DNA of 64,000 nt. Origin: Gemmatimonadales bacterium. Lineage in GTDB: Bacteria; Gemmatimonadota; Gemmatimonadetes; Gemmatimonadales; GWC2-71-9. The position numbers and the translations under genes were made by a program. The notes under the pieces were generated by a model. It saw only the letters and a program-made list of their open reading frames with translations, was not told the origin of the DNA and did no database searches. Below are positions 242 through 61,225 of this stretch, one piece after another. The DNA lies in the NCBI GenBank assembly GCA_050183815.1, contig JBFXAY010000006.1, forward strand, positions 49,208-113,207. The letters run 5' to 3'. The stretch's first letter is position 1; every line of letters starts with the position of its first letter.

Positions 242-3200
242 CTAGGATTCGGCTGCCCGCGCGGTCGGGGCCCACCGGGTCAGCACCGTCCGGAGCTCCT
301 CGAGTTTGATCGGTTTGGCGAGGTAGTCGTCCATCCCGGCCCGCAGGCAGCGATCCCGGTCGCCCTCCATCGCGTTGGCGGTGAGCGCCACGATCGGGAC
401 CCGGGCCTCTCGCTGGCCGTACGTCCGGATGGCGGCGGTGGCCTCGTAGCCGTCCATCACCGGCATCTGGCAGTCCATCAGGATCAGCTCGAACGGCATC
501 CGCTGCCACATCTCCACGGCTTCCTTGCCGTTGGTCGCCAGGTCGACGTGACATCCCAGCTTCGTCAGCATCTTGGCGGCCACCTTCTGGTTGACCGGGT
601 TATCGTCGACCAGCAGGACCCGCATCGGCGTCAGACCGGCTTCCGGTCCGTCCGCCGACGCCGCGAGACCTTCAGCCGGCGCCAGGTCGCACCGCGGGGC
701 CACCAGCCGCTCGAGGCTCTCGGCGAAGGTGTCGGACCGGAACGGCCGCGAGAAATAGGCGGTGTAGCCTGCGGCGGCCAGCTCGTCGGCGCGACCCCGG
801 GTACCGCCGTCGGTCACGAGGACGAGGATCGGCTCGCCGAGTTCGTTGTTGGAGCGGACCCGCGATCCGAAGTCCACCGAAAATCGTGCGTGGGGATGAT
901 AGTCCACGATGATCAGCCGGTAGGGGTCGCCGCCCGCGGCGGCCCGGTTGAGCAGATCGAAGGCCCGGGTCGGCGAGTCCGTCGCGTCGATCCGCATGCC
1001 CAGTTCCATCGCGAACTCGGCCATCACCAGCCGCTGCATCGGATTCTTGTCGAGGTAGAGCGTCCGGACGCTCTTGAGGCCGGGATTCGACGGCAGCGCC
1101 GACGCGTGCGGATCGAGCGGGAGGCGAATCGTCGCCCAGAAGGTCGACCCGCGGCCGGCCTCGCTGTTGAGTCCGACGGCCCCGCCCATCAGCTCGGCCA
1201 GTTGCTTGGAGATCGCGAGGCCGAGACCGGTCCCGCCGAACCGCCGCGTCGTGGACGCGTCGGCCTGGGAGAACTTCTGGAACAGCCGGGCGTGGTGCTC
1301 GGGCGGAATCCCGATTCCGGTGTCGGTCACGGCAAGGCGGAGCACCGCCTCGCCGCCCGTGAGTTCCTCGCCGGACACCTCGATCAGGACGTGTCCTTCG
1401 GCCGTGAACTTGATCGCGTTGCCGGTGTAGTTGAACAGGATCTGGCGGACCCGGCCCGCGTCGCCGATCACCCGGCGGGGCGTGCCCGGCGCGAACCGGG
1501 CGGCGAGCCGGAGTCCCTTCTCGCTCGCTCGAGATGCGAGGAGGTCGATGACCTCCTCGACCGCGTTCCGGAGATCGAAGGGCAGCGGTTCGAAGCTGAG
1601 CCGCCCCGCTTCGATCTTCGAGAAGTCGAGGATGTCGTTGATGATCGTGAGCAGCGACTCGCCCGAGGAACGTACCGTGGTGGCGAACTCGCGCTGCTCG
1701 GCCGTCAGGTTCGTATCGAGGAGCAGGCCCACCATGCCGATGATGCCGTTCATCGGCGTTCGAATCTCGTGGCTCATCGTGGCGAGAAACTCGCTCTTGG
1801 CCTGGGCCGCGCTCTCGGCGCGTTCCCGCGCCTCCGAGACCGCTTCCATCGAACGGGCCAGTTCCGCCGCCGTTCGCTCGGTGGCGGCCTTGGCGGTTTC
1901 CAGTTCCCGGAGGTAGCCGAGGCGCTCTTCCTCGAGGCGCTTCTGTGCGTGGATGTCGCGCAGCGTTGCGATGCAGGTTGGCACCCCGTCGAGGAAGACC
2001 CGCCGCACGGCCAGCTCCACTTCGACCATGGCGCCGTCCGGTCGGCGGATCAGCGCCTCGACCGGCTCCTCGCGCCGGGCCCACCGATCCACCAGCGGCT
2101 CGGTCGGATCGGCACCGGGGTCGACGACGATGCTGTCGACCCGCGCCCCAACCAGCTGGTCTGCCGGCCGGGCCAGGAGCCGGACGGCCGCTCCATTGGC
2201 CGACTGGATCAGGCCGTCGTGACCGACCACGAGGAGGCCATCGGCGGTCGCGTTGAAGATCTCGCGCTGGCGGGCGGCGGCCGCCGCCAGCTCATCTTGG
2301 GTCCGCCGCTGCTCCGTCACGTCCTGGAGGCTGCCGAGGTGTCCGGTGACCCGGCCCTGGAACCAGCGCGGATGAGTCCGCGCGTGGACCCACCGGACCT
2401 CTGCTGCCTGCGTCACGATCCGGAACGTCCGGTCGAGGGGCTCAGCGCTCGCGATCGCCGCCTTCCAGGCCAGCACGGTCGCTTCCCGGTCCTCCGGGTG
2501 GACGTAGCTCGCGAACCCGAATCCCTGCAGCTGGCGGGCGGCCACACCAAAGAGAGCCGCGCAGGAGTGATTGACGTAGACCGCCATTCCCGCCGCGTCC
2601 GTCGTGAAGAGGCCCACGGGACTCGAGTCCGCGATGGCGGCGGTCTCGGCTTCGGCCGCGTTCAGCCGCGCGGCGGCGCGCCGCTGGTACCCGAATGTGA
2701 GAATCCCGCCCAGGAGGATCACGGCGAGGAGGGAGCCGAATCCGAGGACGATACGCCGCGACCGCGCGACCTCGCGGCCGACCACGGCACGCCGGTACGC
2801 GATGGCGGCGACGCCCACCACCCGGCCGCCGTCGTCGCGGATCGGCTGGAGGCCGAACTCCCGGTTCCCGATCAGGACGACCGGCGCCGGGGTACCGGCC
2901 CAGGCCCGCTCGAGTTCGGCAGCCGGGGCCTCCGCGAGAAGGGTCGAATCGGCGACCGCCGCCCCACCGATCGCCCGACCGGCCCGGTCGAGCAGGTACG
3001 CGGCTTCGAAATGCGTGTCCTCGGTGAGCCACCGATTCTCCCGCTCGACGGCGGCGGCCAGAGCCGAATCGGGGAACGGCGACCCGGCTGCCTCGAAAAG
3101 CCAGGTGGCGAACTGCGGTGCCACGACGGCGACTCGGTCGGCCAACCGGGCAATGGCCAGCTGTTCGGCCCTGTGGGCGGCCAGCCAGGTAACGACGGTG

Positions 3201-3328
3201 AGGAGGAGGAAGGCTCCCGTCGCAAGCAGCCGGCTCAGAACCGGTCTTGCGACCCGGCGGAGGGTAATGGACCCCAGCAGCGCCGACGCCAGCATCAGGA
3301 CCCCGAAGAGCGGGAATTCCCCTGCCAC
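242..3328 (-). CDS. Hybrid sensor histidine kinase / response regulator (membrane sensor, PAS domains, HisKA, HATPase, pseudo-receiver, receiver)
   Basis: 1028-aa ORF. H-box SHEIRTPMNGIIGM, ATPase G-boxes GTGLGLAISK, and a C-terminal receiver (MRVLLVDDNPVNQ...LILMDCQMPVMDGYEAT...ALTANA). Confidence 0.9.
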   Translation of the reverse strand: MAGEFPLFGVLMLASALLGSITLRRVARPVLSRLLATGAFLLLTVVTWLAAHRAEQLAIARLADRVAVVAPQFATWLFEAAGSPFPDSALAAAVERENRWLTEDTHFEAAYLLDRAGRAIGGAAVADSTLLAEAPAAELERAWAGTPAPVVLIGNREFGLQPIRDDGGRVVGVAAIAYRRAVVGREVARSRRIVLGFGSLLAVILLGGILTFGYQRRAAARLNAAEAETAAIADSSPVGLFTTDAAGMAVYVNHSCAALFGVAARQLQGFGFASYVHPEDREATVLAWKAAIASAEPLDRTFRIVTQAAEVRWVHARTHPRWFQGRVTGHLGSLQDVTEQRRTQDELAAAAARQREIFNATADGLLVVGHDGLIQSANGAAVRLLARPADQLVGARVDSIVVDPGADPTEPLVDRWARREEPVEALIRRPDGAMVEVELAVRRVFLDGVPTCIATLRDIHAQKRLEEERLGYLRELETAKAATERTAAELARSMEAVSEARERAESAAQAKSEFLATMSHEIRTPMNGIIGMVGLLLDTNLTAEQREFATTVRSSGESLLTIINDILDFSKIEAGRLSFEPLPFDLRNAVEEVIDLLASRASEKGLRLAARFAPGTPRRVIGDAGRVRQILFNYTGNAIKFTAEGHVLIEVSGEELTGGEAVLRLAVTDTGIGIPPEHHARLFQKFSQADASTTRRFGGTGLGLAISKQLAELMGGAVGLNSEAGRGSTFWATIRLPLDPHASALPSNPGLKSVRTLYLDKNPMQRLVMAEFAMELGMRIDATDSPTRAFDLLNRAAAGGDPYRLIIVDYHPHARFSVDFGSRVRSNNELGEPILVLVTDGGTRGRADELAAAGYTAYFSRPFRSDTFAESLERLVAPRCDLAPAEGLAASADGPEAGLTPMRVLLVDDNPVNQKVAAKMLTKLGCHVDLATNGKEAVEMWQRMPFELILMDCQMPVMDGYEATAAIRTYGQREARVPIVALTANAMEGDRDRCLRAGMDDYLAKPIKLEELRTVLTRWAPTARAAES

Positions 3329-16487: not shown

Positions 16488-17009
16488 TCAACCCCCGCCG
16501 AGCGCCCGAATCAGCGCCTTCATGAAGGCCGGCAGGTCGGCCGGGGTCCGCGAGGAAATGAGATGGCCGTCCACGACGACCGGGCTGTCTTCCCACTGCA
16601 TCCCGGCGTTGACGAGGTCGTCCCGGATCGCGCCGACGCTGGTGCCGCGCTTGCCCCTGACGATGCCTGCCGAGATCGGAACCCAGCCGGCGTGGCAGAT
16701 GAAGGCGACCGGCTTCCCGGCCGCGAAAATTTCCCTGGTCAGGTCGAGGACCTTCGCCGACCGCCGGAGGATGTCCGGCGCGTAGCCGCCGGGAATCACC
16801 AGGCCGTCGAAATCCGCGGCGGCGAGCCCGTCCACGCTGGTGTCGACGGTCAGCGGATACCCCCGCTTGCCCTGGTAGGTCGGCTCGCCGAGGCCGGCCA
16901 CGACCGTCGTCGCCCCCTCCTCCTCGAGTCGGATCTTCGGGTACCACAGCTCCAGGTCCTCGTACCAGTTCGCGGCGAAGATCAGGATGCGTTTTCCGGT
17001 GAGCGGCAT
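16488..17009 (-). CDS. DJ-1/PfpI family protein (class I glutamine amidotransferase-like)
   Basis: Start set at the internal ATG (MPLTGKRILIFAAN...). Nucleophile-elbow motif AFICHAGW. It is 4 nt upstream of the MazG-like gene. Confidence 0.85.
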   Translation of the reverse strand: MPLTGKRILIFAANWYEDLELWYPKIRLEEEGATTVVAGLGEPTYQGKRGYPLTVDTSVDGLAAADFDGLVIPGGYAPDILRRSAKVLDLTREIFAAGKPVAFICHAGWVPISAGIVRGKRGTSVGAIRDDLVNAGMQWEDSPVVVDGHLISSRTPADLPAFMKALIRALGGG

Positions 17010-17091
17010 CGGCGCCTCGGCGTCGGTTGTGGAGTATCTTTCCCCGGGAAACATACTCCGCCGTCCAGACCCTCCACCGATTCGGACCGCC

Positions 17092-17340
17092 ATGCGCAGC
17101 CGGGACCAGATCCTCGCCAATCTCGAAACCATCTACCGCGAGTCCTACGACCGGGCCCGGGAAACCGACGACACGAAACGCATGAGCGACCTGGACTGCG
17201 CCTACGTCCGGGATCAGTTGACGATGGAGGTCCTGCTCGACATCCGGGATCTGTTCTCGGTGACCCCGGCCGCCACCAAGACCGGTGGCACCGCCCTGGA
17301 GAAACTCGAGGCCATCCGCCGCCTCACCAAGTTCCGCTGA
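17092..17340 (+). CDS. Small hypothetical protein (82 aa)
   Basis: From ATG 17092: MRSRDQILANLETIYRESYDRARETDD... It ends 11 nt before the amidohydrolase gene. No recognisable motif. Confidence 0.4.
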   Translation: MRSRDQILANLETIYRESYDRARETDDTKRMSDLDCAYVRDQLTMEVLLDIRDLFSVTPAATKTGGTALEKLEAIRRLTKFR

Positions 17341-21866: not shown

Positions 21867-22435
21867 TGCGGCGCTTCTTCCTGGTCACCCACCGCTGGCT
21901 GGGTCTCGGCGCGGCGCTGTTTCTCACGCTCGCCGGGGTGTCCGGCATGCTCCTGGTCTGGAGCGACTCCGAGACCCTCGAGATGTTCCACAAGCGTCTC
22001 TTCCTCGGCGAATTCGGGGAATGGCTGCTGATCGCGAGCACCGCGATCTTCCTCTTCCTGGCCGTCGGCGGCGTGGTGCTCTGGTGGCGCCGGAAGATTC
22101 TCACCATTCGCGGCGGCCGCGGCTGGTGGCGTACCCTCTTCGACCTCCATCACGCCCTCGGCATGATCGCGATCGTCGTGACCCTGCTCATCGCGGGGAC
22201 CGGGATCGGGATCGTGATCGAGGAAGAGGAGCACGAAAGGGAGGCCCGGGTCTCCCGCGAAGAGGAACGGGTCCGGGAAGAGGACGAGGCCCTCTACCGG
22301 CTCCACACCGGACGGACCTTTCCCCCGCCCCTCAAGGTCGTCTGGGCGCTGGCATCCCTTTCCTTCGGGATCCAGGCGCTCTCCGGATTCTTCATGTGGT
22401 GGAAGCCCCAGCAGGGGCAGGGCGGCGAGAGCTGA
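21866..22435 (+). CDS. PepSY-associated TM helix-type membrane protein
   Basis: The ATG at 21866 overlaps the E1 stop (TGATG). The N-terminus [32 protein letters not shown] is typical of PepSY_TM proteins. Confidence 0.65.
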   Translation: MRRFFLVTHRWLGLGAALFLTLAGVSGMLLVWSDSETLEMFHKRLFLGEFGEWLLIASTAIFLFLAVGGVVLWWRRKILTIRGGRGWWRTLFDLHHALGMIAIVVTLLIAGTGIGIVIEEEEHEREARVSREEERVREEDEALYRLHTGRTFPPPLKVVWALASLSFGIQALSGFFMWWKPQQGQGGES

Positions 22436-38560: not shown

Positions 38561-38791
38561 ATGCAGGTTTCGATCCAGTACTGCGTCGCCTGAAACTACG
38601 AACCGCGGGCCGCCAGGCTGGCGGCCGAACTCAAGGAGGCGTTTCCGGACGTCGATATCAAGAAGGTTCCGTCGAGCGGCGGGGTCTTCGAGGTGACGGT
38701 CGACGGGACGCTGCTGTTCTCGAAGAAGGCGCTAGGTCGGCACGCCGGGCCCGGTGAGGTGCTCGAGCTGATTCGGAGCCGGCCGCACTAG
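38561..38791 (+). CDS. SelW/SelT/SelH (Rdx) family selenoprotein, with in-frame TGA 38591-38593 read as Sec (CVAU motif)
   Basis: From ATG 38561 (GGAGGG SD): MQVSIQYCVA-U-NYEPRAARLAAELKEAFPDVDIKKVPSSGGVFEVTVDGTLLFSKKALGRHAGPGEVLELIRSRPH-TAG. This matches the Rdx fold signature (CxxU near the N-terminus, FEV.V.G.L.FSK). A hairpin lies 14 nt after the TGA. Confidence 0.8.
38608..38626 (+). promoter_or_regulatory. SECIS-like hairpin downstream of the Rdx TGA
   Basis: GGCCGCC-AGGCU-GGCGGCC: a 7-bp GC stem (plus a possible A-U closing pair) with a G-containing loop. Confidence 0.5.
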
Positions 38792-43167: not shown

Positions 43168-43791
43168 ATGGTCGGATTGCTCGCCGTCGCCGTTCTCTGT
43201 ACCGCCCCTCCGGCGGGGGCCGCCGCCGCCGATTCGCTGGCCGCTCTCTATCAGCAGGGCCGGTCGTGGACGGAGTTCCTGGCCGGGGCCAACGCCCGCC
43301 GCGACGCCTGGGTGGGCAACTATCGGGATGGCGAAGCCGACTCGGCCGCCGTCCAACGGGTCCGGCAGCTGGCGGGTCGCTGGCGGCTGCTCGTCGTAGC
43401 CGAGGACTGGTGCTCCGATTCGGTCAACACGTTGCCCTACGTCGCTCGGCTGGCCGAGGCCGGCTCCGCGCTCGAGATCCGCATCATTGGCTCGGCGGTG
43501 GGCCGCGCGGTGATGGCGAGCCACCCCACGCCGGACGGGCGAGCGGCAACGCCGACGATGATCGTCATCGACGAGGAGGGTCGCGAGGCGGGCTGTTTCG
43601 TCGAGCGTCCGGCAGCGCTGCGAGCATGGCTCGCGGCGGGCGGCGGCCGGAACAAGGCGGAGTGGTATCGCGAGGATCGCGGCCGTTCCACCGTGACCGA
43701 CCTGCTCGACCAGCTTGGAGCGGCGTCAGCGCGCCGGCTCGACGGGCCGAACCCGGACGGTGAGGCCGGATACCGCTGCACCGTCCGCTGA
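43168..43791 (+). CDS. Thioredoxin-fold family protein (Thioredoxin_9-like), secreted, degenerate active site WCSDS
   Basis: 207 aa with a signal peptide. The LLVVAEDWCSDSVNTLPYVARLAE block is typical of this family. Confidence 0.7.
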   Translation: MVGLLAVAVLCTAPPAGAAAADSLAALYQQGRSWTEFLAGANARRDAWVGNYRDGEADSAAVQRVRQLAGRWRLLVVAEDWCSDSVNTLPYVARLAEAGSALEIRIIGSAVGRAVMASHPTPDGRAATPTMIVIDEEGREAGCFVERPAALRAWLAAGGGRNKAEWYREDRGRSTVTDLLDQLGAASARRLDGPNPDGEAGYRCTVR

Positions 43792-48738: not shown

Positions 48739-48811
48739 CGCCGTTCCATTGCCGGCCGGGCCTCGGTCCCGAGTCGGCGCGGTATATTCCCGCCATGGCG
48801 ATCGAGTCGCG

Positions 48812-49711
48812 ATGACGGACCGGGAAAACCATCTCGATGTCCTGGAGGCGGAGGCGGTTTTCGTCCTGCGGGAAGTGGCGGCCGAGGTGGAACGGGCCGC
48901 CCTGCTGTTTTCGGGGGGCAAGGATTCCACGGTCCTCCTGCACCTGGCCCGGAAGGCGTTCGCGCCCGCGCGGGTTCCGTTCGCCCTTCTGCATGTCGAT
49001 ACCGGACACAACTTCGACGAGGTGATCGCGTTCCGGGACATGGTCGCCCGGGGGCACCGGCTGATGGTTGCGTCGGTGCAGGACTCGATCGATGCCGGCC
49101 GGGTTCGCGAGGAGCGTGGGCCCCGGAGCAGCCGCAACCGGCTCCAGTCGGTCACCCTCCTCGATGCAGTGGCGGAGCACCGGCTGGGCGCCCTGATCGG
49201 CGGCGCACGGCGCGACGAGGACAAGGCCCGGGCCAAGGAGCGGGTGGCGAGCATCCGGGACGAGTTCGGGCAGTGGAATCCCCGCCAGCAGCGGCCGGAA
49301 CTCTGGCAACTCTACAATCTCCGCCATCGGGCCTCGGAGCACCTTCGGATCTTTCCGCTCTCCAACTGGACCGAGCTGGACGTCTGGCGGTATGTGGAAC
49401 GGGAAGGGATCGAGCTGCCGTCGCTCTACTTTGCGCACCGGCGCGAGGTGTTCCGGCGGGACGGGATGTGGTTCGCCGCGATCGCGGCGGTCGAGCGGCT
49501 GCCGGGAGAGGTCGTGGAGACGCGGAGCGTGCGGTTCCGGACCGTCGGGGACGCCACCTGCACCGGCGCGGTCGAATCGGAGGCTGCTACCGTTGCGGCG
49601 GTGATCGCCGAGATCGCCGCCTCGCGCCTGACGGAACGGGGTGCCACCCGGGCCGACGACCGGATCAGCGACGCGGGGATGGAAGACCGGAAGCGCGAGG
49701 GGTACTTCTGA
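48812..49711 (+). CDS. cysD: Sulfate adenylyltransferase subunit 2
   Basis: Start at ATG 48812. PAPS-reductase-fold P-loop FSGGKDS and conserved ...HVDTGHNF..., ...WNPRQQRPELW... blocks. Confidence 0.93.
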   Translation: MTDRENHLDVLEAEAVFVLREVAAEVERAALLFSGGKDSTVLLHLARKAFAPARVPFALLHVDTGHNFDEVIAFRDMVARGHRLMVASVQDSIDAGRVREERGPRSSRNRLQSVTLLDAVAEHRLGALIGGARRDEDKARAKERVASIRDEFGQWNPRQQRPELWQLYNLRHRASEHLRIFPLSNWTELDVWRYVEREGIELPSLYFAHRREVFRRDGMWFAAIAAVERLPGEVVETRSVRFRTVGDATCTGAVESEAATVAAVIAEIAASRLTERGATRADDRISDAGMEDRKREGYF

Positions 49712-50982
49712 TGGACCTCCTCCGCCTCGCCACGGCCGGCTCGGTCGATGACGGCAAGAGCACTCTGATCGGCCGCCTCCTCTTCGACACCCGTCAGATC
49801 CTCGACGACCAGCTCGCGGCGGTCGAACAGAGCAGCCGGGAGCGGGGCTTCGACTACGTCAACCTGGCGCTGCTGACCGACGGTCTCCGGGCCGAGCGGG
49901 AGCAGGGGATCACGATCGACGTCGCGTACCGGTATTTCGCGACGCCGCGGCGGAAGTTCATCATCGCGGATACGCCGGGACACGTGCAGTACACCCGGAA
50001 CATGGTCACCGGCGCCTCGACCGCGGATGTGGCGCTGGTGCTGGTCGATGCGCGGAAGGGACTGGTCGAGCAGTCCCGCCGCCACGCGCTGATCGCGTCG
50101 CTCCTCGGGGTGCGGCATCTCGTGGTCTGCGTCAACAAGATGGATCTGGTGGACTATTCCGCCTCAGTTTTCGACGCGATCCGGGAGGAATTCGGCCGGT
50201 TCGCCGCCCGGCTCGAATTCGGTGACGTCGTCTTTGTCCCGATTGCGGCGCTGCACGGCGACAACGTGGCCGAGAAGTCGGACCGGATGCCGTGGTACGA
50301 GGGACCGAGCCTGCTCTGGCATCTCGAGAACGTGTACATCGCGTCGGACCGGAACCTCATCGATGCCCGGTTCCCGGTGCAGGGCGTGATCCGGCCGATG
50401 ACGGGCGAACACCACGACTATCGGGGCCTCACGGGTCAGGTCGTGGCCGGGGTGTTTCGTCCCGGCGACGAGATCATGGTGCTGCCGGCCCGCCAAGTGA
50501 CCCGGATCGCCGGCATCGACCTGGGAGGGCAGCCGCGCGACGAGGTCCGCGCGCCGGTCTCCGCCACACTGCGGCTGGCGGACGACCTCGACGTCGGCCG
50601 GGGGGATCTGATCTGCCGGCCGAACAACGCCCCGGAGGTGAGTCAGGCCGTTGAAGCGATGGTGTGCTGGTTCAGCGACCGGCCGATGACGGGCGGCGCC
50701 ACGTACACGCTCAAGCACACGACGCGGTCGGCCCGGGCCCGGATCGACACGCTCCGGTACCGGCTCAACGTCAACTCACTCTCGCGGGAGGAAGGCGCCC
50801 CCGAACTCGGTCTCAACGACATCGGCCGGGTGCTGCTCCGCACGGCGACCCCGATCTGCTACGACGAGTATCGCCGCAACCGGGCCACCGGGAGTTTCAT
50901 TCTCATCGACGAGACGACCCTGGACACCGTCGGCGCCGGGATGATCATCGGGCCGGCGGTGGAATCGGCCGGGTCGCCGTAG
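49711..50982 (+). CDS. cysN: Sulfate adenylyltransferase subunit 1 (GTPase), with no fused APS kinase
   Basis: The ATG at 49711 overlaps the cysD stop. G1 GSVDDGKST, G3 DTPGH, G4 NKMD. 423 aa. Confidence 0.93.
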   Translation: MDLLRLATAGSVDDGKSTLIGRLLFDTRQILDDQLAAVEQSSRERGFDYVNLALLTDGLRAEREQGITIDVAYRYFATPRRKFIIADTPGHVQYTRNMVTGASTADVALVLVDARKGLVEQSRRHALIASLLGVRHLVVCVNKMDLVDYSASVFDAIREEFGRFAARLEFGDVVFVPIAALHGDNVAEKSDRMPWYEGPSLLWHLENVYIASDRNLIDARFPVQGVIRPMTGEHHDYRGLTGQVVAGVFRPGDEIMVLPARQVTRIAGIDLGGQPRDEVRAPVSATLRLADDLDVGRGDLICRPNNAPEVSQAVEAMVCWFSDRPMTGGATYTLKHTTRSARARIDTLRYRLNVNSLSREEGAPELGLNDIGRVLLRTATPICYDEYRRNRATGSFILIDETTLDTVGAGMIIGPAVESAGSP

Positions 50983-57631: not shown

Positions 57632-58611
57632 GCGACGCCGGCCCGGTCCCGACGCTCGAGGCCCTGACGCCGGAGTGTCTCGCCGCGGCCCGGCAGCGGA
57701 TCGCCGGGCGGGTCGTCAGGACGCCGCTGATCCGGTGGTACGATACGACGGACGACCGCGAGGTCTGGCTCAAGCTCGAGACCCTCCAGCCGATCGGGTC
57801 GTTCAAGTTGCGCGGGGCGACGAGCGTGTTGACGTCGGTCGCGCCGGAGGTCCTGGCGGGCGGGGTCGTCACGGCGAGCGCCGGCAACATGGCGCAGGGC
57901 GTGGCCTGGGGTGCCCGCGAACTCGGCGTGCCGTGCACGGTCGTGGTACCCGACCACGCGCCGGTCACCAAGCTCAAGGCGATCGAGCGCCTGGGCGGCC
58001 GGGTCATCCGGATCGGATTCGACGCCTGGTGGCGGGTGCTCGAGGACCGCCGTTTCGAAGGTGCGCCGGGCTTCTTCGTGCACCCCGTGGCCGATACGGA
58101 GGTGATCGCCGGGAACGCCTCGATCGGATTCGAGATCGCCGAGGACCTGCCCGAGGTCGACCTGGTCCTGGTGCCGTTCGGCGGGGGCGGGCTGTCGAGC
58201 GGGATTGCCGCGGCGCTCCGGCAGGCGGCTCCGGCGGCCCGGGTGCTGGCCGTCGAGCCGGAAACCGCCGCCCCGTTCGGCGCCTCGCTCGCGGCCGGGC
58301 GGCCGGTGTCGTTCGACTACCAGCCCAGCTTCATCGACGGCTCGGGAGGCAAGAGCGTCCTGCCCGCGATGTGGCCGATCGCGCGGGCTCTGCTGGCCGG
58401 CGCGGTAGCGGTCAGCCCCGCCGAGGCGGCCGACGCCGTCCGACTGCTGGCGGAGCGGGCCCGCGTGGTGGCCGAAGGAGCCGGCGCGCTGGCACTGGCG
58501 GCGAGCCGGTCGGAGGTATCGGCCGGCCGCCGGATCGTCTGCATCGTGTCGGGCGGGAACATCGATGCGGGGCGGCTGGCCGCGATTCTCGGCGGCCAGG
58601 TCCCGCGCTGA
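57628..58611 (+). CDS. PLP-dependent threonine/serine ammonia-lyase-like enzyme (Trp-synthase beta fold)
   Basis: The GTG at 57628 overlaps the preceding stop. PLP-lysine motif GSFKLRGA and a glycine loop GGGGLSSG. Confidence 0.85.
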   Translation: MSDAGPVPTLEALTPECLAAARQRIAGRVVRTPLIRWYDTTDDREVWLKLETLQPIGSFKLRGATSVLTSVAPEVLAGGVVTASAGNMAQGVAWGARELGVPCTVVVPDHAPVTKLKAIERLGGRVIRIGFDAWWRVLEDRRFEGAPGFFVHPVADTEVIAGNASIGFEIAEDLPEVDLVLVPFGGGGLSSGIAAALRQAAPAARVLAVEPETAAPFGASLAAGRPVSFDYQPSFIDGSGGKSVLPAMWPIARALLAGAVAVSPAEAADAVRLLAERARVVAEGAGALALAASRSEVSAGRRIVCIVSGGNIDAGRLAAILGGQVPR

Positions 58612-58615
58612 GCGG

Positions 58616-58963
58616 CTACTTCACGAACTTCTCGTAGGTCTCCTGGTCGAACCCCACCAGCAGCGTCCGGCCCTTTCGTACGGTCGGCGCCCGGAGGTTT
58701 CCGCTCGGTCCGACGAGGACCGCGGCCAGGTCTGCCCGGGAAGGCTGATCCCGCTTGAGATCGAAGTGAAGCACCTTCCGGCCCTTGGTGACGTACAGGT
58801 GGTCGATGCCCTCGAGCACGGCGAGGGCCTGCTTGCCGGGAATGGTCCGCTTCTTCGCGTCCACCGTTTCGGTGACGGTGGCGTCATGCTGCGCAAGGAA
58901 CCCTTGCGTACGTTTGCAGCTGATTCACCCGGGGCGCAGGTACGCCCAATCGACTTTCGGCAT
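58616..58963 (-). CDS. ArsC/Spx/YffB-fold selenoprotein, with in-frame TGA 58927-58925 read as Sec (UISC motif)
   Basis: From ATG 58963: MPKVDWAYLRPG-U-ISCKRTQGFLAQHDATVTETVDAKKRTIPGK...LRAPTVRKGRTLLVGFDQETYEKFVK. The track ORF (58616-58864) is only the C-terminal part, in the same frame. The TGA aligns with the first Cys of the fold's N-terminal CxxC/CxxS. A hairpin lies 17 nt downstream. Confidence 0.78.
58892..58908 (-). promoter_or_regulatory. SECIS-like hairpin downstream of the ArsC-like TGA
   Basis: Minus-strand RNA CGCAAGG-GUU-CCUUGCG (or a 6-bp stem with a GGUUC loop), flanked by an outer GCUG/CAGC helix. Confidence 0.5.
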
Positions 58964-59010: not shown

Positions 59011-60084
59011 TCAGGGCTGTGGCGTGGGCCGCCCGCCCGGTTTCCATTCCGGTTTGGGACCGTCCGCGAGGATCCGCACCGCGGCGGCGGCCGCGTCGAT
59101 GACCCGGGCAAAATGGTCGCGGTCGACCCGGCTGATTTCGTCGCTGGGCCGGTGATAGTCCTCGTGCATGTTGAACGTCGACAAGGTATGCGCGACGATG
59201 CCCTTGAGGGCGAACTGATAGTTGTCGCTCCGGCGGAAGAAGTTTTGGGCCGGCCGGCGATCAGGCCCGATCGGAAGGCCCGCTGCCGCGAGCGCCTCTC
59301 CCATCGTGCTTCGTTCGTACCCGGTCAGCCACGCCCGGCCCGGTCCGCCGGCGAGCGAATCAGGACGGCCGATCATTTCGATCTCGAGGTTGGCCACCAT
59401 CTGGTCGAGGGGGCGGACCGGATGGTCCGAGAACCATCGCGCGCCGAGGAGGCCGGATTCCTCGCCGATCCAGGTCGCGAAGACGAGGGTCCGCCGCGGC
59501 CGCGGTCCGCGGGCAATCTGCCGGGCGATTTCCAGGACGGCCACCACCCCTGACGCGTCGTCGTCCGCCCCGTTGTAGATCGAGTCGCCGTTGACGGGGG
59601 CGCGAATACCGACGTGGTCGTAATGCGCTCCAATCAGCACGTATTCGTCCGCGAGTGCCGGATCCGCTCCCGCGATCAGGCCGACGACGTTCGACCCCGG
59701 GAGCCGGTCCGCGGCCGGGAACGAGTCGCGCGCCGCGAAGCTTGCCGCCACCATCGGTCCCCGGACGGTTCGCTCCTGGCCGCCATTGCGGAACGTGCGA
59801 CTCGCCATGACCAGCGGCACGCGCTGGTGGAAGCCACTGTCGCCGGCCGGGGTGAGGCCAGCCCCGCGCATTTCCTCCGCGATGATGCGGGCGGCCGATA
59901 CTGCGCCCGGACGGCCCGTGGCCCGGCCCGCCAGCGAGTCGTCGGACAGGGTGGCGAGGAGCCGGTAGGCCGCGCCCGGGTCGGTCATCGGCTGAGACGG
60001 AGCGGCGTGGCCCCCGCAGGCCGCGAGCAGGAGCACGGCGGCGGGCCAGGAGCGGGTGGGCAATGTCAGGTTCGGAAAGGTCAT
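59011..60084 (-). CDS. M28 family zinc aminopeptidase, lipoprotein
   Basis: Start at ATG 60084 (MTFPNLTLPTRSWPAAVLLLAACGG). Metal-ligand blocks IGAHYDHVG, GADDDASG, EESGLLGA. Confidence 0.88.
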   Translation of the reverse strand: MTFPNLTLPTRSWPAAVLLLAACGGHAAPSQPMTDPGAAYRLLATLSDDSLAGRATGRPGAVSAARIIAEEMRGAGLTPAGDSGFHQRVPLVMASRTFRNGGQERTVRGPMVAASFAARDSFPAADRLPGSNVVGLIAGADPALADEYVLIGAHYDHVGIRAPVNGDSIYNGADDDASGVVAVLEIARQIARGPRPRRTLVFATWIGEESGLLGARWFSDHPVRPLDQMVANLEIEMIGRPDSLAGGPGRAWLTGYERSTMGEALAAAGLPIGPDRRPAQNFFRRSDNYQFALKGIVAHTLSTFNMHEDYHRPSDEISRVDRDHFARVIDAAAAAVRILADGPKPEWKPGGRPTPQP

Positions 60085-60277
60085 CGAGGTATCGTCAGGG
60101 TTCGGTCGGCGGCGGGCCAACGAGCCAGCGTCCGGCATGCCCGAGGCCGCGCTTCGCCGTGCGGACGTGGATCGTAAACGGGGTGGGTCGCCGGCGGCAC
60201 CGCCGTCCCGGAAGCGATGCCGGCGGCACGTCCCTCCGCTTGGGCGGCAGCCGACGCGCCGGCCGACGCCCCGCCGG

Positions 60278-61225
60278 TCATTCGTCCGGCGGCCCACCGG
60301 CGGCCGCGACCTGTCCGGGCTTGATCTTCCCGGCGTCGAGGCGTCCGGCGGCCGCCGTCATCTTCTCGATGATCTCGTCGGGATCCATCTTCGCGCCGCG
60401 CTTGAAGCGGATCGGATTGATCCGGGCGATCACGAAGGCCTTGAGATAGGGACTCTCGAGCCCTCGGGCCCTCAGTTCCGCCACCTTCTCCACGACGGCA
60501 GCGTCGAGCGCCAGCAGGCGCTCGGCCCGTTCCCGGCGGGTGGCGAGCGATTTGGAGAGCCGGGCGGCGGAGAACGACTCGGTGCGTTTGAGGACCGGAT
60601 GGTACGCCCCGCCCGAAAACCGGCCGTTCAGCTGGTAGCAGGCTCCGAGCGTCAGCAGGGCGGGCTCCTCGAACTCGGTCTCGTACTCCCGTTCCGGTCG
60701 GTCGTCGAGCGCACTCAGCGCCTCGGCGAGGCGGATCACTTCGAGGGCCCGTTCCCGGACATTGTGGGCCTTCTCGGTGTTGAGCACCAGGATCCGGTGG
60801 GCCACCGACTGGTCCGGCACCACGATCGCGAGCACCGCGCGGGCGCCCAGCTGCCGCATGGCCGCGAGCCGGTGGTTGCCGTTCGGCGTCCAGTAGCGGC
60901 CGTCCGCGGTCCGGACGGCTACGACCGGGTCGATGAACCGTCCGAGCCGGTCGATCGCGTCGGCGAGCCGGGCCACATGGGTCGGCGAGAGATCCCGCTG
61001 GTACGGCGTCGGCTCGACCCGGTCGAGGGGCAGGGCCGCCAGCAGCTGCCAGTGGCCACCGAGCGGCTCGCGGTAGTTGCCGACCACCGCGCCCCCGTCG
61101 GCCTCCACTTGGGTGGCCAGCGTCTCGAGGGCCGCCGGCGGCTTTCCGGATCCCACCGCGGCCGCCGTCAGACCCCGGGGTTCGGGCGCTTCCTTGCGTT
61201 TCTTGCGCGGGCGGGCGGTGGCCAT
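60278..61225 (-). CDS. ParB/Srx-fold N-terminal domain protein (orphan, no parA nearby)
   Basis: Start at ATG 61225 with a Lys/Arg-rich N-terminus. ParB-like block TPYQRDLSPTHVARLADAI...NGNHRLAAM. Confidence 0.75.
   Translation of the reverse strand: MATARPRKKRKEAPEPRGLTAAAVGSGKPPAALETLATQVEADGGAVVGNYREPLGGHWQLLAALPLDRVEPTPYQRDLSPTHVARLADAIDRLGRFIDPVVAVRTADGRYWTPNGNHRLAAMRQLGARAVLAIVVPDQSVAHRILVLNTEKAHNVRERALEVIRLAEALSALDDRPEREYETEFEEPALLTLGACYQLNGRFSGGAYHPVLKRTESFSAARLSKSLATRRERAERLLALDAAVVEKVAELRARGLESPYLKAFVIARINPIRFKRGAKMDPDEIIEKMTAAAGRLDAGKIKPGQVAAAGGPPDE

Follow-up and report, generated by a model that had tools for sequence, protein, structure and literature searches.

Selenoproteins of the ArsC-like type are already in the literature: an "ArsC-like" selenoprotein was catalogued by Zhang et al. 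in 2006 (PMC1794560), the GOS selenoproteome of 2008 lists an "Arsenate reductase 2, cd03032, UxxC" (PMC2398784), and a 2022 review names an "Arsenate reductase-like protein, COG1393, UxxC" (PMC9312934). The SECIS element of bacteria is described as a stem-loop immediately 3' of the UGA with a guanosine in its apical loop (PMC9312934, PMC2398784). Here we analyze a gene of this kind on the minus strand of a 64-kb stretch of DNA, which we call the window, and assign a probability of about 0.92 to the reading that the locus truly encodes a Sec-containing member of the known family NF041106. The gene is real, correctly read, and already known, since catalogues have listed ArsC-like UxxC selenoproteins from 2006-2008 onward; all that is new is the truncation of the gene at the UGA in public gene models.

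Reading frame, family, and fold of the ArsC-like gene

The gene comprises the following features.

58616..58963, minus strand: complete recoded CDS of an ArsC family (seleno)protein, based on the translation, NF041106, and full-length Cys-form homologues of the same length
58961..58963, minus strand: ATG start codon; relatives begin at the equivalent position with M[PAS]x[LIV]DW...
58925..58927, minus strand: UGA codon 13, Sec, the first residue of UxxC; aligned with the invariant Cys13 of the Cys forms and covered by the codon census
58916..58918, minus strand: TGC codon 16, the presumed resolving Cys of UISC; invariant in all aligned family members
58616..58618, minus strand: TAG stop codon, 4 nt from the end of a convergent PLP-dependent dehydratase gene

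Translation of the minus strand gives 115 codons from Met1 to Lys115, with Sec13 inside, followed by TAG. Between ATG 58963 and TAG 58616, the frame is interrupted once only, by TGA 58927-58925. The recoded product begins MPKVDWAYLRPG-U-ISCKRTQGFLAQ..., and in its longer form the 115-residue product reads MPKVDWAYLRPG-U-ISCKRTQGFLAQHDATV...ETYEKFVK. This agrees with an earlier note on this DNA, which had followed the frame through the single TGA to ATG 58963 and had regarded the listed 82-aa ORF (GTG 58864) as holding only the C-terminal part of the protein; that ORF lies in the same frame, is the C-terminal portion of the 115 codons, and corresponds to NF041106 positions 31-107. The placement of the gene 47 nt downstream of an M28 peptidase gene is also correct, in that the stop codon of the peptidase gene on the same strand (59011-60297, PF04389) lies 47 nt upstream of the start of the ArsC-like gene. 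On the other side, a convergent plus-strand gene for a PLP-dependent Thr/Ser-dehydratase-like protein (PF00291) ends at 58611.

Membership of the NCBIfam family NF041106, "ArsC family (seleno)protein" (ArsC_rel_Se_1), calls for a score at or above the curated cutoff of 85 bits with full coverage of the model. The U-to-C product scores 135.9 bits over model positions 1-107 of 107, and the 82-aa fragment alone scores 89.2 bits. The earlier note had proposed searching the 115-aa U-to-C product against PF03960 (ArsC), and this check came out in two parts: the alignment runs from end to end of the model (1-79, E = 9.9e-5), but the score of 23.0 bits narrowly misses the gathering threshold of 24. 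Several Cys-form relatives have a precomputed PF03960 match. It is NF041106 that makes the family assignment firm. Against TIGR01617, which describes Spx and MgsR, the product scores 28.9 bits, below the cutoff of 75.

When a profile of the family was compared with solved structures, Spx (3l78, E = 3.5e-8), a putative ArsC (2m46), and YffB (1rw1) were matched. The fold was assessed on an AlphaFold2 model of a relative rather than of the window protein, namely, the closest full-length Cys form, of the same length and 67% identity (P0002), which was predicted with a pLDDT of 94.9. In this model, strand beta1 spans residues 6-9, a helix spans residues 14-25, and C13 sits at the helix N-cap. The helix N-cap after beta1 is the classical site of the redox motif in thioredoxin folds. 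A Foldseek search of the PDB with the same model returned Spx, ArsC-related proteins, and YffB as the best matches, with a probability of 1.00 and TM scores of 0.5-0.56; the scores are no higher because the middle insert differs. Between beta2 and beta3, the model has a predicted beta-hairpin (residues 55-68) as against an all-helical subdomain. The two marks of the ArsC/Spx/YffB superfamily, a thioredoxin-like core and a redox motif at the beta1/alpha1 junction, are both present in the modeled relative. The gene product is a small thioredoxin-like-fold protein of this superfamily, belonging to NF041106, and the predicted insert suggests that the clade may be structurally distinct within it.

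The public databases present a different picture of the gene. Its own entries (58616-58924) are 102 aa long when derived from NCBI and 82 aa long in Logan. The closest relative, the 94%-identical Gemmatimonadales protein MEZ4456207.1, which NCBI names "ArsC family (seleno)protein", is likewise entered as 102 aa; the entries for the gene and this relative are P0121, P0122, and P0001. The 102-aa models of both the window gene and MEZ4456207.1 take an Ile codon just past the TGA as a Met start. Exactly 102 aa is also the length of most other database entries, which start at the codon after the Sec/Cys site (MTC..., MSC...); such truncations make up about two thirds of the matches listed for the family. 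Since the models begin just past the TGA, the annotated products are without Sec and without strand beta1. The correct product is 115 aa long with U13, and the 102- and 82-aa entries need to be read as truncations. We note that the scientific weight of this correction is small, given that the family has been in catalogues since 2006-2008 and has a dedicated NCBI model.

Taken at face value, these entries correspond to an alternative in which the TGA is a true stop and the functional product is the 82-aa (GTG 58864) or 102-aa (ATC 58924) protein without the first active-site residue, or in which the locus is a decaying pseudogene of a Cys-form ancestor. The fact that public collections contain exactly these 102- and 82-aa models, for the gene as well as for its relatives, is in keeping with this alternative, as is the finding, detailed below, that the Sec machinery is not seen in the window. 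On the other hand, ATC is improbable as a natural start codon, and a truncated protein would be without strand beta1 and the nucleophile of the motif. The comparison with relatives bears on it further.

The TGA codon and the sequence upstream of it in relatives

A protein search returned 256 relatives, and their full-length members of 115-117 aa read ...DW[AS]Y[LH]Rx[GS]-C-x-[TS]-C... in the N-terminal region. In an alignment of twelve sequences, D5, W6, Y8, R10, C13, and C16 are invariant, and the TGA of the window falls on C13. The proposal that the TGA replaces the first active-site Cys to give UxxC is borne out by this alignment, in which the second Cys of the motif, C16, does not vary either. 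A lack of homologues aligning upstream of residue ~34 had been named as a result that would speak against the extended gene; full-length Cys forms do align there, through the invariant residues from D5 to C16.

We next compared the codon itself across the DNA of 80 related loci from species-representative genomes, which together with the window make 81 sequences. These loci come from at least six phylum-level groups and include Gemmatimonadota, Planctomycetota, Rokubacteria/Methylomirabilota, Acidobacteriota, Obscuribacterales, Verrucomicrobiota, and others. At the equivalent of codon 13, the census gave 39 TGA, 39 TGC, and 3 TGT, so the Cys/Sec comparison that the earlier note had called for finds both forms among relatives. 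NF041106 is characterized by Sec or Cys at the first U/CxxC position, and it is at this position that the window gene has its TGA. That 39 of the 81 sequences, from several phyla, share a TGA at this codon argues against a true stop. In Gemmatimonadota, Sec-form loci (e.g., L001, L005, and L007) and Cys-form loci (L004 and L011) are flanked by the same M28 peptidase and PLP dehydratase genes and are for that reason positional orthologues. This synteny is confined to Gemmatimonadota; no neighboring gene is conserved across phyla in the neighborhoods compared, and those of the other lineages are unrelated.

As TGA and TGC differ by a single A/C, one might ask whether the TGA is merely a sequencing or assembly error for TGC. 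Identical 102- and 82-aa products were, however, obtained from two independent sources, NCBI and Logan, with two contigs each, and TGA occurs in 38 independent relatives. The hairpin described below also co-occurs strictly with TGA. An error is the least probable of the alternatives that we weighed, with a chance that we consider negligible.

If the TGA is translated, the codons that precede it should evolve as coding sequence, as is general for selenoproteins. Across codons -9 to -1 of the 39 TGA forms, entropy is low at the first two codon positions and rises at the third. For Gly at -1, the values by codon position are 0.17/0.17/1.37 bits, and for Asp at -8 they are 0.58/0.17/1.24 bits. Codons -20 to -13, by comparison, show no constraint at any of the three positions (about 1.8 bits), and in the TGA forms conservation breaks down once the start codon is passed in the upstream direction. 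In 27 of the 39 TGA forms, the first start codon to follow the preceding stop is found at codon -12 or -13, and tblastn alignments of relatives run through the stop to residue 1. The conserved peptide before the TGA is DW[AS]Y[LH]RPG. The pattern that was used to locate these sequences preselected W, an aromatic residue, and R; it has no bearing on the conservation of D, P, and G or on the wobble pattern. Judged from these substitution patterns, the nine codons preceding the TGA evolve as coding sequence, and the expectation that 58865-58963 carries a coding signal in relatives holds. Purifying selection with third-position wobble over the 9-12 codons upstream of the TGA is at odds with a true stop.

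The hairpin 3' of the UGA

The element downstream of the UGA is as follows.

58892..58908, minus strand: SECIS hairpin with a 7-bp stem, CGCAAGG/CCUUGCG, and a GUU apical loop, based on conservation, covariation, and TGA specificity

In the window, the hairpin CGCAAGG-GUU-CCUUGCG occupies nt 20-36 from the U of the UGA and lies within codons 19-24 (T-Q-G-F-L-A). It begins at the 17th nt after the UGA, leaving a spacer of 16 nt, and its position at 58908-58892 is as had been claimed. The outer GCUG/CAGC helix that was thought to extend it fared less well: a GCUGC/GCAGC helix does extend the hairpin in the minimum-energy fold of the window sequence, yet it is not conserved in relatives, and we have dropped it from the element. 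That fold has an energy of -21.4 kcal/mol with z = -1.85 relative to shuffled sequences, and the hairpin alone is only mildly unusual. Its significance derives from conservation and covariation across relatives and not from its stability in the window alone.

The motif ACGCAAG[G/A]GUU[C/U]CUUGCG is found at nt 19-36 from the U of the UGA in 39 of 39 TGA forms, and no intact copy of the hairpin was seen in the Cys forms of the 81-sequence set. At nt 21, 27, and 33, which are third codon positions, the entropy in Sec forms is 0.29, 0.00, and 0.17 bits, compared with 1.40, 1.59, and 1.34 bits in Cys forms. The hairpin uses the codons CAA (Gln) and CUU (Leu) in a genome with a GC content of 69.5%. 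One Cys form, from a JGI metagenome contig (P0008; L086, 4037-4096), keeps the hairpin with one mismatch, ACGCAGGAGUUUCUCGCG, plausibly as a relic of a recent Sec-to-Cys conversion from a Sec ancestor.

Covariation was assessed in an alignment of 37 distinct sequences, in which the TGC codon 16 (T10-G11 in the RNA alignment) is invariant in 37 of 37. Standard pairing occurs in 96.9% of the stem cells, whereas any slid register gives 62.5% or less. At pair 26-30, 19 sequences have G-C and 17 have A-U; at pair 21-35, 35 have G-C and 2 have U-A; and at pair 24-32, 28 have A-U and 9 have G-U. The observed covariation score was reached by 0 of 500 shuffles, a generous control that overstates the significance because the sequences are related; the slid registers and the contrast between Sec and Cys forms are the stronger arguments. 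Outside this alignment, a verrucomicrobial locus (L081) has a TGA, the upstream peptide VDWSYHRNG, and an identical hairpin.

Across the family, residue 22 of the protein (window 58898-58903, minus strand) varies between Gly (GGG) and Glu (GAG). The replacement between GGG and GAG is coupled to a synonymous change of the Phe codon between UUC and UUU that keeps pair 26-30. As read from these alignments, the RNA structure couples an amino-acid replacement at residue 22 to a silent change in the Phe codon.

The hairpin is conserved and fits the published description of the bacterial SECIS, a stem-loop directly 3' of the UGA with a guanosine in the apical loop. Searched at both gathering and permissive thresholds, Rfam yielded no match to a SECIS or any other family at this locus, and it apparently has no model for a hairpin of this kind. 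A hairpin that is specific to the TGA forms and conserved with compensatory changes is difficult to reconcile with a true stop, which, with the evidence above, we consider very improbable for this codon.

Probable Sec decoding, proposed function, and relation to known systems

Assignment of the codon to Sec, as opposed to mere readthrough, draws on other genes of the window. Only four in-frame TGAs in the 64 kb are flanked on both sides by sequence of coding-like composition, and three of these four coincide exactly with the Sec/Cys site of a curated (seleno)protein family, which makes the TGA of the ArsC-like gene more than a chance occurrence. The fourth candidate, at 22152 on the minus strand, was set aside, as its composition is non-coding-like. 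The earlier note had counted the ArsC-like gene as the third selenoprotein gene of the window, and the other two are indeed matches to curated families.

38561-38791, plus strand, TGA 38591-38593: selenoprotein gene of the SelT/SelW/SelH (Rdx) family, motif CVAU; NF041051 score of 101.3 bits (cutoff 88), and PF10262
52348-52890, minus strand, TGA 52674-52672: AhpD-like "peroxidase-related enzyme" selenoprotein gene with ECRY-U-IHHH; TIGR01926 at 111.8 bits against a cutoff of 81.8, and PF02627

The SelW/Rdx-like product reads MQVSIQYCVA-U-NYEPRAARLAAEL..., and a GC-rich hairpin, GGCCGCCAGGCUGGCGGCC, lies 3' of its UGA. In the AhpD-like gene, a hairpin ACGGAG-CGGGU-CUCCGU, which was read by eye and not taken from a computed fold, starts 13 nt after the UGA. 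Because these two genes of known selenoprotein families share the window with the ArsC-like gene, the organism very probably decodes Sec. ARAGORN and Rfam searches and a Pfam scan of about 45 ORFs for SelA, SelB, and SelD revealed no selA, selB, selD, or tRNA-Sec in the 64-kb window, a scope that cannot show absence of the Sec machinery from the genome, which the earlier note had named as a further result that would count against its reading. A literature search on Sec use in Gemmatimonadetes found nothing specific.

Two candidates for Sec machinery were considered and rejected. The sole ARAGORN call, a 96-nt "tRNA-Glu(ctc)" at 1474-1569 (minus strand) that attracted attention by its length as a possible tRNA-Sec, is a false positive; it lies inside a gene for a PAS/HisKA/HATPase/receiver hybrid kinase (242-3328, minus strand) and has no Rfam tRNA match. 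A GTPase at 49273-50982 was rejected as SelB since it is CysN-like and adjoins a CysD-like gene. The two genes occupy 48749-50982 on the plus strand, the CysD-like one (PAPS_reduct domain) preceding that of the CysN-like GTPase (GTP_EFTU plus an eEF1A-like C-terminal domain), and their products resemble the subunits of sulfate adenylyltransferase. Further genes of the window that relate to redox or stress encode a Thioredoxin_9 family protein (43168-43791, plus strand) and a DJ-1/PfpI family protein (16488-17132, minus strand).

It could be argued that the UGA is read through without Sec, either by a near-cognate Trp or Cys or through reassignment, and that the hairpin is a general stimulator of readthrough, since the Sec assignment rests on sequence and the machinery genes lie outside the window. 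Reassignment is contradicted by the window itself, in which TGA ends many ordinary, well-supported genes, the M28 peptidase gene among them. Against any readthrough of this kind, the recoded site is a catalytic Cys in orthologues, a classical Sec/Cys pair; the family is curated as (seleno)protein and included in selenoproteome surveys; and two further genes of the window have TGA at known Sec sites, each then with its own hairpin. We give this explanation as slim a chance as we give the true stop, and all of the alternatives together amount to less than one chance in ten. Reading the codon as Sec, we take the presence of three selenoprotein genes in 64 kb as a sign that this high-GC organism, related most closely to Gemmatimonadales (Gemmatimonadota), uses Sec, which is useful for annotating the remainder of the genome.

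By analogy with the established bacterial Sec pathway, from which we infer both SelB binding and Sec insertion, SelB carrying Sec-tRNA(Sec) would be recruited by the hairpin within the coding sequence as the ribosome approaches, and Sec would be inserted at codon 13. U13-x-x-C16, at the end of beta1 and the N-terminus of helix alpha1, would then form a redox pair; Spx and the Cys-containing orthologues have their CxxC at the site of this UxxC. In the mechanism that we propose, Sec13 would act as the nucleophile that attacks an oxidized substrate, Cys16 would resolve the intermediate to give an internal selenenylsulfide, and a cellular thiol system would re-reduce the latter. Based on the motif, we lean toward this U13/C16 cycle with reasonable, though by no means strong, confidence. 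From fold and motif, the biochemical role is most likely that of a selenol/thiol oxidoreductase.

A more far-reaching reading can be put forward only tentatively, and we consider it rather doubtful as a whole: the clade would be a functionally distinct redox group with a remodelled middle domain, neither an arsenate reductase nor an Spx-type regulator, in which the SECIS dictates the sequence of helix alpha1. The hairpin supplies the codons for T-Q-G/E-F-L-A in helix alpha1. To judge from their third codon positions, lineages with the Cys form may have been freed of the hairpin constraint, with one of them keeping the one-mismatch copy as a "fossil". Were this reading true, the family would lend itself, as a clean natural system, to the dating of Sec-to-Cys conversions and to work on the constraint that RNA imposes on protein sequence.

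How the gene compares with its known relatives also bears on what it should be called. No ars genes were found beside it in the neighborhoods of three different lineages. With no ars context and no neighbor conserved across phyla, the names "arsenate reductase" and "Spx-like regulator" are unsupported as functions. Glutaredoxin-coupled R773-type ArsC and YffB (PF03960) belong to the same superfamily, with a thioredoxin-like core and a nucleophile at the N-terminus of helix 1. R773 ArsC has a single Cys and an Arg triad and not a CxxC/UxxC pair, while the window gene falls just below the PF03960 threshold and is not seen in an ars operon context; it is this difference in the active site, along with the missing ars context and the sub-threshold score, that leaves arsenate reduction unsupported. 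The Spx/MgsR regulators (TIGR01617; 3l78, 1z3e, 6gho), which bind the C-terminal domain of the RNA polymerase alpha subunit, are the nearest solved structures by both sequence and fold, and Spx carries its N-terminal CxxC at the same beta1/alpha1 position as the UxxC here. The family differs from Spx in its TIGR01617 score (28.9 against 75), its TM scores of 0.5-0.56, and the predicted beta-hairpin in the middle insert. Spx proteins are not known to be selenoproteins.

The recoding element can be set beside the SECIS of E. coli fdhF, which likewise forms a stem-loop inside the coding region just past the UGA and has G and U in its apical loop. In the ArsC-like SECIS, the loop G-U lies at nt 27-28 from the U of the UGA; the equivalent in fdhF is G23-U24, and the fdhF element also has a bulged U, which is not evident in the ArsC-like hairpin. 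The hairpin ACGCAAGRGUUYCUUGCG is specific to the family and doubles as codons for T-Q-G/E-F-L-A. Going by its description, we provisionally equate the published UxxC "ArsC 2" group with the NF041106 clade. On that footing, the window gene and the published ArsC-like UxxC selenoproteins of NF041106 are alike in having Sec at the first UxxC position, coexisting Sec and Cys forms, and a hairpin 3' of the UGA, with no essential difference between them.
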